Shown here piece after piece: positions 13,277 to 19,288 of a stretch of 39,466 nt of DNA (its first letter is position 1; every line of letters begins with the position of its first letter). The notes under the pieces were generated by a model. It was not told the origin of the DNA and did no database searches. It saw only the letters and a program-made list of their open reading frames with translations. The stretch is from the sequence record PZ445457.1; one strand, written 5' to 3'. Both the position numbers and the translations under genes were made by a program. Origin of the DNA: a phage.

Positions 13277-13738
13277 ACTGCTCATCGGCGCTTAGTGCGC
13301 TCTTAGTGATTATGGTCGATATATACATCTTCCCTATAATCACTGTAAGAAGTCAACTCTAAGAGTAACCCTTATGTACCACTCTCTATGGTCTACAGGG
13401 TCTCTTAGGGTCTCTCACGTAGTCTCACCGCTATGCTCCTGCGTAGCACCTTATGATAGAGCCTCTGTGGTTAACCTTATGAGCCTTGATGTACCCCCCT
13501 TTAAGAATCCTACAGAAAAATCTGAGAGGGTATCTCATAGTTCATACAAAGTGTTTCCCCCCTATGGCCTCCTTCAGTCCACTCAAAGAGTGCCACCCCT
13601 ATGGTAACTTTATGTTTACTTAATGTCAATCCTTATGTGAGACATTGGGATGACTTATGGTTCACCACTAGATGTGGTGCTTAGGGTGACTTAGTGATAC
13701 TATATGTAGTCCTCTATGTGTCCCTATCTGTAAGTGAC

Positions 13739-13868
13739 CTTTGAGTCATCACCTTATGTTTCCTCTTTGAGTCATCACCTTATGTTTCCTCTTTGAGTCA
13801 TCACCTTATGTTTCCTCTTTGAGTCATCACCTTATGTTTCCTCTTTGAGTTAACACCTTATGACCTCC
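13739..13868 (+). repeat. Tandem direct repeat, 26-bp unit ctttgagtcatcaccttatgtttcct, 4 exact copies plus 1 degenerate
   Basis: Directly visible at 13739-13842 with a diverged fifth copy to 13868; positionally analogous to the T7 left-end repeat array just inside the terminal repeat. Confidence 0.9.
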
Positions 13869-13982
13869 TTATGGCTGGCTATCCTTATGTTAACCTTCAG
13901 TCGGTGCCTTATGTTTATCAGTGACCAGTAGGCTACGTCACTAAGAGAGAATCACTATCTTACTCTGTTTAGCAGTCTCTGA

Positions 13983-14021
<39 letters not shown>

Positions 14022-14077
14022 AGTAGAATTGACTGAGTGCTTATAGTGCCTTAAAGCTGGTTTATAGTCAATAGCCT

Positions 14078-14100
14078 TTATACGACTCACTAATGGGATA
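14078..14100 (+). promoter_or_regulatory. Phage RNAP promoter (phiOL-like)
   Basis: ttatacgactcactaatgggata, first phage promoter after the genome-end region. Confidence 0.65.
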
Positions 14101-14184
14101 GGTTGATTATGGTCTAATTATAATCCCTCCTTATAGTGCTAACTTAAAGACCACTTAAAAGATAACTTAAAGTCTAACTAAGGG

Positions 14185-14213
14185 TTGACTCTAAGAAACA
14201 ACTATGTTCTAAT
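14185..14213 (+). promoter_or_regulatory. Host sigma70-type early promoter (A1-like)
   Basis: TTGACT, 17-nt spacer, TCTAAT. Confidence 0.6.
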
Positions 14214-14322
14214 GGCTACCAGTTGAGAGAGACACAACGCTACCAACTACCAGACAAGACCTAGAGTTATCTGGTAAGGCTGAAGGGTCTCAAGTAGTCA
14301 TCAACCAGACATACGAAAGTGG

Positions 14323-14351
14323 TTGACTCAACGAAAGCAATAACGTAGTAT
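14323..14351 (+). promoter_or_regulatory. Host sigma70-type early promoter (A2-like)
   Basis: TTGACT, 17-nt spacer, TAGTAT. Confidence 0.6.
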
Positions 14352-14416
14352 AGCAGTCGTCAACAACTGATCGCCCTCTGAAACAACATGAGGTGTCATG
14401 GTGAGAAACAAAGTAG

Positions 14417-14446
14417 TTGACAAGTAGTGACGATAAGATGTAAGAT
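14417..14446 (+). promoter_or_regulatory. Host sigma70-type early promoter (A3-like)
   Basis: TTGACA, 18-nt spacer, TAAGAT followed by GTACCAC as in recalled T7 A3. Confidence 0.6.
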
Positions 14447-14637
14447 GTACCACGACATAACGTTCTTGTGATGTCCCACACTGAAAGGGACTCGGTGCTA
14501 ACGAAGCCTGCACTTAAAGCTCTTTAACAATTTGGATGAATAGCACTCTTGAGATGACGACAACAGCGATTAACTCAAGGTGACTCGAAAGAGAGAAGCC
14601 TTTATGATAATCACTGCAACCACATAAGGTAATCATC

Positions 14638-15096
14638 ATGATTCACACTAAAGAGCAAGCTAACGTTTTCTATGTACTGGTAAGCGCATTCCGTTCTAAC
14701 CTCGACGATGAGGTCAACATGAGTCGCCACCGCCACATGGTTAATAATCTGCGCAACGCACCGGGTCTTTATGGTATCGTTGAGTCTACCGATTTAACTG
14801 GCTGTTACCGCGAAGCCATCTCAAGTGCACCGACTGAAGAGAAAACAATCCGTGTACGTTGTAAAGACAAGGCACAGGTTCTTAATGTCGCACGACTGGC
14901 CTGTAATGAGTGGGAACAAGATTGCGTACTGGTCTATAAGTCACAGACTCACACGGCTGGCTTAGTGTACGCTAAAGGCATTGACGGCTATAAGGCTGAA
15001 CGTCTGCAAGGTAGCTTCCAGCGCATCCCTAAAGGTGCACCAATCCAAGGCTGCTTCACGGTTGACGAGTTCGGCAAATACTGGCAGGTAGCATAA
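14638..15096 (+). CDS. gene 0.3: S-adenosyl-L-methionine hydrolase (SAMase), T3-type gene 0.3 anti-restriction protein (152 aa)
   Basis: ...VFYVLVSAFRSNL.DEVNMSRHRHMV...STDLTGCYREAISSAPTEEKT.RVRCKDKAQ.LNVARLACNEWEQDCVLVYKSQTHTAGLVYAKGIDGYKAERL matches recalled T3 SAMase, not T7 Ocr. Confidence 0.85.
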   Translation: MIHTKEQANVFYVLVSAFRSNLDDEVNMSRHRHMVNNLRNAPGLYGIVESTDLTGCYREAISSAPTEEKTIRVRCKDKAQVLNVARLACNEWEQDCVLVYKSQTHTAGLVYAKGIDGYKAERLQGSFQRIPKGAPIQGCFTVDEFGKYWQVA

Positions 15097-15097
15097 C

Positions 15098-15295
15098 ATG
15101 GTCGCACTCTTCGTAATCACGATGTACGCTCTGATTGGGGCGTACTTCCTTCGAGACTTCACAACGGGTCTCAAGGTACACAAGGCTAACTTCTCGCACC
15201 TGAAGTATGGCTTTCTACCACGATTCACAGTCCGTGAACGTAACGGGCGCTTTAAGGCTAACAAGGTTGGTATCTTCTATGTTGCAACACACTGA
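15098..15295 (+). CDS. Hypothetical small early protein with hydrophobic N-terminus (65 aa)
   Basis: ATG overlaps gene 0.3 stop (taacatg); N-terminal MVALFVITMYALIGAYFL is TM-like; in the T7 gene 0.4-0.6 region; weak RBS. Confidence 0.45.
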   Translation: MVALFVITMYALIGAYFLRDFTTGLKVHKANFSHLKYGFLPRFTVRERNGRFKANKVGIFYVATH

Positions 15296-15443
15296 TAGTT
15301 TAACTAAGAAAGTCCTGTACGCACTGGCATATGGTGCCACCAACAAGACGCTAATGAAGGTACTGAACACAGAGCGTCTACCTGCCAGAAAGGTAGCAAA
15401 GGCACGTAAAGAAGCACGTTTAATTCTTAATTCTCTCTCTTAA
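15279..15443 (+). CDS. Hypothetical small basic early protein (start uncertain; 15207 or 15356 possible)
   Basis: ORF in a different frame overlapping the previous one; basic C-terminus ARKVAKARKEARL; start codon ambiguous. Confidence 0.3.
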   Translation: MLQHTDSLTKKVLYALAYGATNKTLMKVLNTERLPARKVAKARKEARLILNSLS

Positions 15444-15463
15444 ACTCAATAGGACACAATCTA

Positions 15464-16567
15464 ATGAACTACACCGACATTCAGGCACGTCTGGCAATCA
15501 TCAAGTCACTCCCGATTAGCGAACTGGACAAGCGCCAGCCTCTTCTGGTTGCACTGGCTGCTGACATCGTGAACGGTGAGACAAGCGATGGCAACGACAC
15601 AGATGGGTCGCAGGGTCTTGAGTATCAGGACTATTGGCACACCTTGGGTGCACTGATGCGTGATGCAGGTTTCCGCATGTTAGGCAATGGTCACTTTAGC
15701 GCGGCTTACTCGCACGAAATGTTACCGGGTCGAGTCATCAAGGTTGGCTTTAAGAAAGAGGATTCAGGCGCTGCATACACTGCATTCTGTAGGATGCACC
15801 AAGGCCGAGCGGGTATCCCTAACGTCTATCACGTAGCACGTCATGCGGGTTGCTATACGGTCGTACTGGACCGCTTAAAAAGCTGTGACCGCTACGCTAA
15901 CGATGTTCACGCAAAGTATGCAAGTGCTGCGCAGGAGTTCATTGAGTGCTCTGGAGGTGATGCCGATTGGTACGCACAATATGTTAGCAAGGAGTTCATT
16001 GAGACATGCAAGATGATTCGTGAGTTCTTCCACGGTATTGCATCTTTCGACATGCACAGTGGGAACATTATGTTCGACGAGAACGATGTAGCTTACATCA
16101 CTGACCCTGTTAGTTTCTCTCATGACCGTGAACGTGAGGACGGTTTCCCTTTAGACCCTGATGCACTGATTGCCGAGGTCGAGGCGATAGCTAACGAGCG
16201 CATCATTGAACGGTGCCGGAACCGCAAGGCCAAATGTGACCCTAACGGAACCTTTCAGGTTAACCGCAAGGCCGCAATGAAACGCCGTAAGCGCAACCGC
16301 AAGTTACGTGCTAAACATGCAGCGGAAGGAATGCAACAGTTTGTCAAAGGGCGTCTTGAGCGTAGAGCTATTGACCGAAATGAACGCCGTGCTGAGATGT
16401 TCATGGGGTCTGGCTGGCATGACTTCTGGTTACGCAACGGTAACACACTGGTACGCAAGGTTGACCAAGTGAACGGCCTTAAGTGGCAACTAGGGGACCG
16501 ATTGGCAATACAGGCTGGTCGCCCTTTGAACATCGACAAGGTACTTGACGCTAAACTTATGGGCTGA
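15464..16567 (+). CDS. gene 0.7: Serine/threonine protein kinase and host transcription shutoff protein gp0.7 (367 aa)
   Basis: LGNGHFSAAYSH...RVIKVGFKKEDSGAAYTAFCRM.QGR.GIPNVY.V.RHAGCYTVVLD...IASFDMHSGNIMF...YITDPVSFS matches recalled T7 gp0.7. Confidence 0.95.
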   Translation: MNYTDIQARLAIIKSLPISELDKRQPLLVALAADIVNGETSDGNDTDGSQGLEYQDYWHTLGALMRDAGFRMLGNGHFSAAYSHEMLPGRVIKVGFKKEDSGAAYTAFCRMHQGRAGIPNVYHVARHAGCYTVVLDRLKSCDRYANDVHAKYASAAQEFIECSGGDADWYAQYVSKEFIETCKMIREFFHGIASFDMHSGNIMFDENDVAYITDPVSFSHDREREDGFPLDPDALIAEVEAIANERIIERCRNRKAKCDPNGTFQVNRKAAMKRRKRNRKLRAKHAAEGMQQFVKGRLERRAIDRNERRAEMFMGSGWHDFWLRNGNTLVRKVDQVNGLKWQLGDRLAIQAGRPLNIDKVLDAKLMG

Positions 16568-16581
16568 TAAGGTGTATCTTC

Positions 16582-16606
16582 AAGGTCGGCACTCACTGCT
16601 GGCCTT
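16582..16606 (+). promoter_or_regulatory. RNA hairpin, candidate RNase III site (R1-like), between 0.7 and gene 1
   Basis: aaggtcggc-actcact-gctggcctt; stem with G-U pairs. Confidence 0.45.
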
Positions 16607-16639
16607 CATAGATAAACTTTCTTAACAACGAGGCACACA

Positions 16640-19288
16640 ATGAACGTAATCAACGCACCAAAGAATGACTTCTCTGACATCGCTAACGCAATCCAGCCGT
16701 ACAACATTCTGGCTGACCATTACGGCGCACAGCTTGCAGCTACACAGCTTGAATTGGAACATGAAGCACACACTGAGGGCGAGAAGCGTTTTCTTAAGGC
16801 GATGGAACGTCAAATCAAAGCTGGTGAGTTCGGTGATAACGCAGTGGCTAAACCGCTCCTGTCATCCCTCGCACCGAAGTTCATCGAAGCGTGGAACACT
16901 TGGTTCACTGAGGTGGAAGCGAAGCGTGGTAAGCGTCCAGTAGCCTACAATCTGGTACAGAAGGTTGCACCCGAAGCTGCTGCTTTCATCACACTGAAGG
17001 TCACACTGGCTTGCTTGACGAAAGAAGAGTTTACCAACCTGCAATCGGTCGCAACTAAGATTGGTCGCAGTATTGAGGATGAACTGCGTTTTGGTCGCAT
17101 CCGTGACGAAGAAGCGAAGCACTTTAAGAACCACGTACAGGAGGCACTGAACAAGCGCGTTGGTATCGTTTACAAGAAAGCATTCATGCAAGCCGTAGAA
17201 GGCAAGATGTTAGACGCTGGTCAACTGCAAACCAAGTGGACTACATGGACACCTGAAGAATCAATTCACGTTGGTGTGCGCATGTTGGAACTGCTCATTG
17301 GCTCTACTGGTCTCGTTGAGTTACACCGACCGTTTGCTGGTAACGTTGAGAAGGATGGCGAGTACATCCAACTGACCGAACAATACGTTGACCTGTTATC
17401 TAAGCGTGCTGGTGCACTGGCTGCAATTGCTCCGATGTACCAACCATGTGTAGTTCCTCCGAAGCCTTGGACTTCTCCGGTCGGTGGTGGCTATTGGGCT
17501 GCTGGTCGCAAGCCTCTCTCTCTGGTTCGTACTGGTTCCAAGAAGGGACTTGAGCGTTACAACGATGTGTATATGCCTGAAGTCTACAAGGCGGTGAACA
17601 TCGCACAGAATACTCCTTGGAAGATTAACAAGAAGGTTCTGGCAGTGGTCAACGAGATTGTGAACTGGAAGCATTGCCCGGTTGAAGATGTACCTGCTCT
17701 GGAACGTGGTGAACTGCCTGTCAAACCTGATGACATCGACACCAACGAGGCATCACTCAAAGCGTGGAAGAAAGCGGCCTCCGCAATCTACCGCAAAGAG
17801 AAGGCACGAGTGTCACGCCGCATGAGCATGGAGTTCATGTTAGGTCAGGCCAATAAGTTCGCACAGTTTAAAGCTATCTGGTTCCCGATGAACATGGACT
17901 GGCGCGGTCGAGTGTATGCGGTCCCAATGTTTAACCCGCAAGGCAACGACATGACCAAAGGCTTGCTGACGCTCGCTAAAGGTAAACCAATCGGTGTCGA
18001 TGGGTACTACTGGCTGAAGATTCACGGTGCGAACACTGCTGGTGTGGACAAGGTGGACTTTGCTGAGCGCATCAAGTTCATTGATGACAACCACGAGAAC
18101 ATCATGAGCGTAGCGGCTGACCCGATTGCTAACACTTGGTGGGCTGAACAAGACTCTCCGTTCTGCTTCCTCGCGTTCTGCTTTGAGTATGCGGGAGTCC
18201 AGCACCACGGGATGAACTACAACTGCTCTCTACCTCTGGCGTTCGATGGCTCTTGCTCCGGTATTCAGCACTTCTCCGCGATGCTCCGTGATGAGGTTGG
18301 TGGTCGTGCGGTTAACCTGCTGCCGAGCAAGGAAGTACAGGACATCTACCGCATCGTTGCTGAACGTGTGAACGAGATGCTCCGCGAAGCGGTAGTCAAC
18401 GGCACTGATAACGAAGTGGAAACCGTGACAAACAAGGACACCGGAGAAATCACTGAGAAGCTCAAGCTGGGAACGAAAGAGTTAGCTGGTCAGTGGCTGG
18501 CCTACGGTGTGACTCGCAAGGTCACTAAGCGTTCGGTCATGACGTTGGCTTACGGCTCCAAAGAGTATGGCTTCCGCGACCAAGTTCTTGAGGACACCAT
18601 TCAGCCAGCTATCGACGATGGCAAGGGATTGATGTTCACTCAACCGAACCAAGCGGCTGGCTACATGGCTAAACTGATTTGGGAATCGGTAACGGTCACA
18701 GTTGTCGCAGCGGTTGAAGCGATGAACTGGTTGAAGTCTGCTGCTAAACTTCTGGCTGCTGAAGTCAAGGACAAAAAGACTAAAGAAGTCCTCCGCAAGC
18801 GTTGCGCAGTACATTGGGTTACTCCTGATGGCTTCCCGGTATGGCAGGAATACAAGAAGCCAGTACAGACCCGCTTGAATCTGATGTTCTTAGGCCAGAT
18901 TCGTCTACAGCCTACCGTGAACACCAACAAGGATAGCGGGATTGATGCTCGTAAACAGGAGTCAGGCATCGCACCTAACTTTGTCCACTCAATGGATGGA
19001 AGCCACCTGAGAATGACTGTAGTGCGCTCCAATGAGGTCTACGGTGTGGAATCCTTCGCACTGATTCATGACTCCTTTGGCACTATCCCGGCTGATGCTG
19101 GCAACCTGTTTAAAGCAGTGCGTGAAACGATGGTCAACACTTACGAAGAGAACGATGTACTTGCAGACTTCTATGAGCAATTTGCTGACCAGTTGCACGA
19201 GACACAGCTTGATAAGATGCCTGAGATGCCAGCTAAAGGCTCTCTGGACCTGCAAGAAATCCTTAAGTCAGACTTTGCGTTTGCCTAA
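16640..19288 (+). CDS. gene 1: DNA-directed RNA polymerase, single-subunit T7-type (882 aa)
   Basis: Collinear with recalled T7 RNAP: motif A PLAFDGSCSGIQHF, motif C ALIHDSFGT, specificity-loop region QPTVNTNKDSGIDARKQESGIAPNFVHS, C-terminus SDFAFA. Confidence 0.98.
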   Translation: MNVINAPKNDFSDIANAIQPYNILADHYGAQLAATQLELEHEAHTEGEKRFLKAMERQIKAGEFGDNAVAKPLLSSLAPKFIEAWNTWFTEVEAKRGKRPVAYNLVQKVAPEAAAFITLKVTLACLTKEEFTNLQSVATKIGRSIEDELRFGRIRDEEAKHFKNHVQEALNKRVGIVYKKAFMQAVEGKMLDAGQLQTKWTTWTPEESIHVGVRMLELLIGSTGLVELHRPFAGNVEKDGEYIQLTEQYVDLLSKRAGALAAIAPMYQPCVVPPKPWTSPVGGGYWAAGRKPLSLVRTGSKKGLERYNDVYMPEVYKAVNIAQNTPWKINKKVLAVVNEIVNWKHCPVEDVPALERGELPVKPDDIDTNEASLKAWKKAASAIYRKEKARVSRRMSMEFMLGQANKFAQFKAIWFPMNMDWRGRVYAVPMFNPQGNDMTKGLLTLAKGKPIGVDGYYWLKIHGANTAGVDKVDFAERIKFIDDNHENIMSVAADPIANTWWAEQDSPFCFLAFCFEYAGVQHHGMNYNCSLPLAFDGSCSGIQHFSAMLRDEVGGRAVNLLPSKEVQDIYRIVAERVNEMLREAVVNGTDNEVETVTNKDTGEITEKLKLGTKELAGQWLAYGVTRKVTKRSVMTLAYGSKEYGFRDQVLEDTIQPAIDDGKGLMFTQPNQAAGYMAKLIWESVTVTVVAAVEAMNWLKSAAKLLAAEVKDKKTKEVLRKRCAVHWVTPDGFPVWQEYKKPVQTRLNLMFLGQIRLQPTVNTNKDSGIDARKQESGIAPNFVHSMDGSHLRMTVVRSNEVYGVESFALIHDSFGTIPADAGNLFKAVRETMVNTYEENDVLADFYEQFADQLHETQLDKMPEMPAKGSLDLQEILKSDFAFA

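Follow-up and report, generated by a model that had tools for sequence, protein, structure and literature searches.

Phage T3 (NC_003298) carries two small early genes, 0.6 (1430-1627) and 0.65 (1614-1781), upstream of its kinase gene 0.7, in the slot that is also occupied by the pair of reading frames described here. In phage T7 the same slot upstream of 0.7 holds gene 0.6A and a possible gene 0.6B, and in phiYeO3-12 a gp0.6B was annotated as a frameshift product because the second frame has no AUG there. The Berlinvirus phages FE44, BP12A, vB_CECAV_058, SPLA4, ErnstBeyeler, and PC192 show the identical gene order, with hypothetical proteins following gene 0.3. A study by Molshanski-Mor et al. 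(2014; cited in PMC6965359) reportedly identified T7 gp0.6 as a growth inhibitor directed at MreB. Under laboratory conditions, T7 can do without its 0.3-0.7 region (PMC8923235). A transmembrane segment was reported for gene 0.6 of phage AP5 (PMC4283147), and the record of phage ETEP21B likewise gives one for its gene 0.6.

The DNA analysed here (the window) is the whole 39,466-nt stretch of record PZ445457.1, a permuted Berlinvirus (T7/T3-like) genome, and positions 14300-16600 are laid out like the early, left-hand end of T7-like genomes. Megablast of the segment 14600-15500 matched 99 phage records; the top full-length matches were the Berlinvirus phages vB_CECAV_058, ETEP21B, BP12A, and FE44 at 93-95% identity, and the order 0.3 / 0.6 / 0.65 / 0.7 is common to the Berlinvirus relatives and T3. 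An earlier sequence-only reading had placed small early genes here in a slot known from T7, and this placement holds; they are small early genes of class I in a T7-like phage and occupy its 0.3-0.7 slot, in the following setting:

14323 and 14417: sigma-70-like promoters upstream of the gene 0.3 ORF (promoter scan)
14638..15096, plus strand: gene 0.3, SAM hydrolase (SAMase), 152 aa (ORF list, relatives)
15098..15295, plus strand: gene 0.6 homolog (T3 gp0.6 / phiYeO3-12 gp0.6A type), 65 aa, pI 10.5 (ORF list, PHROG 2385); here ORF1
15279..15443, plus strand: gene 0.65 homolog (T3 gp0.65 type), 54 aa, pI 10.5 (PHROG 10380, T3 similarity); here ORF2, a name that also covers its longer mechanical version
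15464..16567, plus strand: gene 0.7, protein kinase, 367 aa (ORF list, relatives)
16640-19288: RNA polymerase gene, 882 aa

As judged by sequence comparison, 0.6 (15098-15295) and 0.65 (15279-15443) are very probably two separate early-operon genes of Berlinvirus, with 0.65 translated from AUG 15279, a longer 78-aa frame left unused, and a probable coupling between the two. Both are ordinary and already known genes, the homologs of T3 0.6 and 0.65 that are annotated in several close relatives. [quoted passage not shown] In the window, gene 0.6 starts 1 nt past the gene 0.3 stop; a promoter and terminator scan found neither element within 15098-15443, and an Rfam scan of 13500-17000 returned no RNA family. 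A 100-aa antisense ORF (14962-15264, minus strand) extends across the 0.3/0.6 boundary; since T7-like phages are expressed from one strand only, it is probably spurious.

ORF1 matches PHROG 2385 over its full length (residues 1-65, E 8e-28), is 63% identical to T3 gp0.6 (E 5e-32), and is 94-97% identical to its counterparts in Kvp1, BA14, FE44, and vB_CECAV_058 (the four compared), which are annotated as 0.6, 0.6A, or hypothetical protein. Relatives of gp0.6 were found by tblastn in 789 phage records, mostly of Klebsiella, Escherichia, and Salmonella T7-like phages. Within the 3' half of ORF1, variation sits mainly at codon position 3, with entropies of 0.32/0.22/0.97 at codon positions 1/2/3 among 71 unique sequences. 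The hydrophobic N-terminus that had been read from the letters of this 65-aa ORF (15098-15295) was recovered by calculation; residues 2-18 have a 17-residue Kyte-Doolittle mean hydropathy of 2.24. The AF2 model (pLDDT 90; helix 2-27, strands 31-36, 40-46, and 52-57) predicts for gp0.6 (7.5 kDa) a single membrane helix at the N-terminus and, after it, a small basic three-stranded beta domain; by the positive-inside rule, the beta domain is probably cytoplasmic. ORF1 thus combines the traits of a T3-type gp0.6: full-length similarity, a position between 0.3 and 0.7 on the same strand, and an N-terminal transmembrane segment.

The 54-aa gp0.65 aligns with its residues 1-54 to positions 1-55 of the 55 positions of PHROG 10380 (E 1e-25), and ORF2 is 41% identical to T3 gp0.65 (E 1e-8). 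The family was found in 14 phage records by tblastn, and gp0.65 also aligns with 56-aa and 77-aa relatives of Klebsiella phages; the family core consists of the AYGA and (P/T)AR motifs, with G19 and R37 invariant and A17, Y18, and A36 nearly invariant. ORF2 shows what characterizes this family, namely whole-length similarity including the motifs, a +1-frame start within the last ~17 nt of 0.6, and an end just before 0.7 (stop at 15441-15443, gene 0.7 start at 15464). The predicted structure is a 6-kDa basic three-helix bundle (AF2 model, pLDDT 88). The window allele (…MKVLNTERLP…) diverges furthest within the Berlinvirus group (pS about 0.3 vs. the others), and among deposited phages its best match does not exceed 91%; an identical protein is encoded on 34 Logan contigs. 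In three other proteins (P0028, P0064, P0066), the body of the 0.65 family is joined to another N-terminal part (M[IV]KYG[IL]T…YR) with a pre-computed Pfam annotation, PF26807; these fusions point to further recombination inside the AYGA region.

A short frame of this kind could in principle be a chance opening in the spacer between 0.6 and 0.7, propagated by annotators. ORF2 has no known function, it is missing from the close relatives BA14, 285P, and S523, where 0.7 follows about 100 nt after 0.6, and it is left unannotated in ETEP21B and PhiV-1. Yet its conservation at the protein level spans Berlinvirus, Teetrevirus, and Klebsiella phages, with 26-47% protein identity across genera despite diverged DNA. 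An exhaustive profile search of 1.84 billion representatives retrieved 16 proteins and among them a coherent gp0.65 family of 54-77-aa proteins; 14 of the 16 were small (45-77 aa). The two exceptions, of 556 and 362 aa, are long and repetitive and align solely with profile positions 6-32, each in 6-7 stretches. The pooled pN/pS of ORF2 (non-overlapping part, Berlinvirus group) was 0.32, which amounts to only moderate constraint, as one control frame gave 0.47. Together with the confident fold prediction, and with the persistence of the gene after its relocation in phage P1338 (see below), these observations make it most improbable that ORF2 is no gene.

Translation start and extent of gene 0.65 have to be considered with respect to these elements:

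15082..15090, plus strand: Shine-Dalgarno-like stretch UGGCAGGUA for ATG 15098, within the 3' end of gene 0.3
15207-15443, plus strand: mechanical second ORF, 78 aa, +1 frame, basic C-terminus (ORF list)
15207..15278, plus strand: 5' extension of the 78-aa ORF, +1 frame, judged untranslated as part of gp0.65
15248..15295, plus strand: conserved 3' end of gene 0.6, a junction common to T7-like genera (junction alignment, 75-locus survey)
15262..15272, plus strand: Shine-Dalgarno-like stretch CAAGGUUGGUA for ATG 15279, within gene 0.6

The second ORF between the SAMase and kinase genes, in another frame and with a basic C-terminus, exists as the sequence-only reading had described it, and the overlap of about 90 nt that was given there is correct for the mechanical ORFs (89 nt). 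The conserved gene, however, starts at ATG 15279, and the true 0.6/0.65 overlap measures 17 nt (ATG 15279 to TGA 15295); the longer overlap of 89 nt reflects how ORFs are listed and follows from the protein sequence of gp0.6. Nor is the start ambiguous, as had been supposed; Shine-Dalgarno complementarity, the extent of PHROG 10380, the annotation of relatives, and gene calls on Logan contigs agree on ATG 15279. Its duplex with the 16S 3' end (-6.8 kcal/mol, spacing 6) equals the value for ORF1, where UGGCAGGUA forms a duplex of -6.8 kcal/mol at a spacing of 7, and is stronger than those of genes 0.3 and 0.7. The 55 positions of PHROG 10380 cover only residues 25-78 of the 78-aa ORF. In FE44, vB_CECAV_058, SPLA4, and PC192 the annotated start is the ATG equivalent to 15279, in ErnstBeyeler it is a TTG codon adjoining the junction ATG, and the Logan-contig gene calls for the identical 54-aa protein also begin at ATG 15279. 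An ATG occupies the junction position in 52 of 71 unique relatives. RNA around 15279 folds less well than shuffled controls (z = +1.68), and folding of the junction revealed no structure able to stimulate frameshifting or to mask the start.

Translation of the full 78-aa protein from ATG 15207, with a genuine 89-nt overlap, would have an in-frame ATG and an open frame at its disposal, and the extension is open in the closest Berlinvirus relatives as well. This ATG, however, lacks Shine-Dalgarno complementarity (-0.5 kcal/mol), its extension lies outside PHROG 10380, and no annotator or gene caller has used it, either in the records of relatives or on the Logan contigs. Stops interrupt the +1 stretch 15207-15278 in 27 of the 71 unique relatives; in phage P694 (L017), the same gp0.65 is preceded by a stop 3 codons upstream of the ATG. 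The pattern of variation argues in the same direction: entropies of 0.22/0.15/1.05 at ORF1 codon positions 1/2/3 of 15207-15278 (71 unique relatives) show that only the ORF1 frame is constrained in this segment. Codon position 3 of ORF1 coincides with position 2 in the +1 frame, so that the +1 frame varies freely in its amino acids whereas the ORF1 residues are fixed; the extension peptide reads 'smafyhdsqsvnvtgalrltrlvss' in the window vs. 'sgasclallygcpmaalrqtkwgys' in Klebsiella phages. When ORF1 was randomly recoded with synonymous codons drawn from the phage's own codon usage, 74% of the recodings kept the +1 frame open over 25 codons or more, and an open frame upstream of 15279 is therefore expected by chance. 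A start at 15207 is very unlikely on these grounds, and the frame between 15207 and 15278 would be chance-open and unused. Conservation in related phages, which the sequence-only reading had made a touchstone for either frame, holds for the ORF1 frame and for the 54-aa gp0.65, but not for the +1 extension at 15207-15278.

The comparison with the 0.6A/0.6B arrangement, for which frameshifting has been assumed, was appropriate in so far as the same arrangement is annotated in this way in phiYeO3-12 ('putative +1 frameshift afford gp0.6B') and in T7 ('possible gene 0.6B'). A programmed +1 frameshift of the 0.6B type within 15204-15295 would join gp0.65 to gp0.6 in a fusion protein, anchored in the membrane and at most about 115 aa long; ORF2 lies in the +1 frame of ORF1, which is open from 15204, and the succession of UUU and CUA at 15212-15217 permits perfect re-pairing (UUU to UUC), CUA being a rare codon that is decoded slowly. 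The open frame by itself carries little weight, as it is expected by chance at the frequency given above (74%) and is closed by stops in the 27 relatives already mentioned; P694 and the T3 group, which have the same 0.65 gene, leave only 3 open codons. The UUU-CUA site is not conserved, since the 71 sequences have TTT in 17 cases, TTC in 32, and a codon not for Phe in 22, and TTG or CTG predominates at the codon after the UUU equivalent. The sole stretch that is open in all carriers consists of the final 7 codons of 0.6; by general re-pairing rules, they include no codon suited to a +1 shift. Folding found no downstream RNA structure (z = +1.68), ORF2 has its own ATG and Shine-Dalgarno sequence, and in P1338 it is unlinked from 0.6.

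Fusions of the gp0.6 N-terminus to gp0.65 have been gene-called in metagenome assemblies, which would speak for frameshifting, but they stem from a single-nucleotide change within a TGGGG run; the window has no such run and reads TATGGC at this place. The two Logan proteins concerned (P0032 and P0056, 116 and 119 aa) consist of the gp0.6 N-terminus, a +1-frame spacer, and gp0.65, and could be assembly errors or natural frameshift mutants. The downstream frame has initiation signals of its own, and a conserved shift site combined with an open +1 frame was not found among the relatives. A frameshift arrangement, as the sequence-only reading had considered possible, is thus unlikely; by the comparative data, a +1 frameshift is neither required nor supported. 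Low-level +1 shifting may occur as a minor add-on that tethers gp0.65 to the membrane via gp0.6.

In the preferred arrangement of two separate genes, AUG 15279 and its Shine-Dalgarno-like sequence would both act from within the last 34 nt of gene 0.6 (15262-15295); gene 0.65 would be initiated from this AUG of its own, and ribosomes ending gene 0.6 would terminate 14 nt past it. Given this short distance from AUG 15279 to the 0.6 stop, translation of the two genes is probably linked by termination-coupled initiation. Such linkage is not universal in the family. In Escherichia phage vB_EcoS_P1338 (L080, 860-1065), the 0.65 homolog is found two genes downstream of 0.6; it is free-standing behind another gene, with a 0.7-type leader and the N-terminus MNYTD, and therefore the protein works without any N-terminus derived from 0.6. 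This homolog is preceded by a duplicated gene 0.7 leader with the first codons, and the fusion of MNYTD to SLTKK… suggests recombination at a short shared ACnGA(T/C) motif. The metagenomic homolog P0007 begins with MTERTD, the junction peptide of T7-type 0.6A, and continues with the 0.65 body; it shows this body joined to a different upstream gene. T3 and phiYeO3-12 have ACA in place of the junction AUG and need a UUG start or another mechanism; the family has no single uniform solution for initiation.

A role as host-takeover peptides, as proposed in the sequence-only reading, is plausible from position alone. By analogy with the corresponding T7 region, which is dispensable, and from their position, gp0.6 and gp0.65 are most likely non-essential accessory proteins that act on the host early in infection; the dispensability in T7 would fit such a host-directed role without defining it. 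Scans of both proteins against Pfam and NCBIfam gave no hit above threshold, PDB sequence searches with the family profiles gave no significant match, and an informative fold or family match was not found for either protein; for gp0.65, helix-turn-helix DNA-binding domains (sigma region 4 / LuxR-NarL type) were among the candidates considered. The literature on 0.6B frameshifting and on gp0.65 function yielded no usable evidence. The MreB activity of T7 gp0.6 does not appear transferable to the gp0.6 of the window, because T7 gp0.6A resembles ORF1 only in its last 13-20 residues. For annotation, it follows that the start of gene 0.65 belongs at the junction ATG, that Berlinvirus genomes should not inherit the 0.6B frameshift label, and that T3-type gp0.6 should not be labelled an MreB inhibitor on the model of T7 gp0.6. 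Both gp0.6, with relatives in about 790 sequenced phages, and gp0.65 could reasonably be included, though they do not stand out, in screens of early proteins directed at the host.

A mildly interesting by-product of the analysis is the 3' end of gene 0.6, a shared junction that serves as the starting point of many unrelated early-gene cassettes. Over its final ~48 nt, the DNA of gene 0.6 is nearly identical across genera (75 loci), being conserved in Berlinvirus, Teetrevirus, Klebsiella T7-like phages, and partly T7, and the DNA homology ends at the 0.6 stop codon (15293-15295 in the window). At least six unrelated downstream cassettes begin at the same in-gene ATG among the 75 loci; they include the 0.65 family, the T7-0.6B/Kvp1-0.62 family, 59-aa and 77-aa proteins, and, by Pfam, an Endonuclease_7 protein (PF02945, E 1.6e-25) and a Bro-N protein (PF02498, E 3e-10). 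The synonymous sites of 15248-15262 (CGC TTT AAG GCn AAC) are almost invariant in the 71 unique sequences, with an entropy of 0.1-0.25, whereas most other third positions reach about 1 or more; the segment includes a TAAGG motif, located 23 nt before the junction ATG. To judge from its sequence, the junction seems to serve both for initiation and as a patch for recombination. A further and tentative suggestion, to which somewhat less than even weight is given, is that the last ~48 nt of 0.6 serve as a portable linker of ribosome-binding site, start codon, and homology patch, through which early accessory genes are swapped within several T7-like genera and each is translationally coupled to gp0.6. 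In BA14 (L003) and three further loci (L009, L013, L015), the 0.65 cassette is absent, and the junction ATG opens a 27-31-aa hydrophobic ORF (MLQHIKRN.GFYMVFVVWPTLCIIFMK) before 0.7, which the BA14 record leaves unannotated.

Compared with the described systems, the window has the gene order of its Berlinvirus relatives, whose ORF2 is 85-91% identical and, where annotated from the junction ATG, has the same 17-nt overlap. T3 shares with the window the +1-frame overlap at the end of 0.6, a gp0.6 of 65 aa, and a gp0.65 of similar size (55 aa vs. 54 aa in the window); it differs by the ACA at the junction, with 0.65 annotated from a UUG one codon downstream and hence with a 14-nt overlap, and by having an RNase III site and a spacer that separate 0.3 from 0.6. 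phiYeO3-12 has a homologous 0.6A, and the C-terminal part of its annotated 0.6B belongs to the 0.65 family and lies in the +1 frame; in contrast to its second frame, that of the window has an AUG and a Shine-Dalgarno sequence. T7 shares the junction sequence (…TATGnnnnAACnCACTGA) and a +1-frame ATG 17 nt before the end of 0.6A, but T7 gp0.6A lacks the membrane helix of ORF1, and similarity across the whole protein was not found; in a one-to-one comparison the alignment was confined to the last 13-20 residues (E 0.005-0.02), and the ORF1 residues concerned are those encoded by the conserved junction DNA. The statement of the sequence-only reading that the two ORFs do not resemble the T7 proteins of this region is accurate for gp0.4 (FtsZ inhibitor) and gp0.5, which gave no BLASTP alignment with either ORF at E <= 10, but has to be amended for gp0.6A, which matches over at most the last 20 residues. 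The C-terminal part of T7 0.6B is unrelated to ORF2 and related instead to gene 0.62 of Kluyvera phage Kvp1. In Kvp1, gp0.6 is 97% identical to that of the window and the junction ATG is the same, yet the cassette downstream is a T7-0.6B-like 72-aa protein and not a member of the 0.65 family. When the T7 region 837-1173 (L006) was compared with Kvp1 1276-1494 (L002), the N-terminal part of Kvp1 gp0.62 matched the T7 +1 frame, and its C-terminus (…ERAAWHRRKEKVKAQKLAALEQAL…) matched the T7 0.6A frame downstream of the 0.6A stop; an internal frameshift therefore separates T7 and Kvp1 in the 0.6B/0.62 gene.
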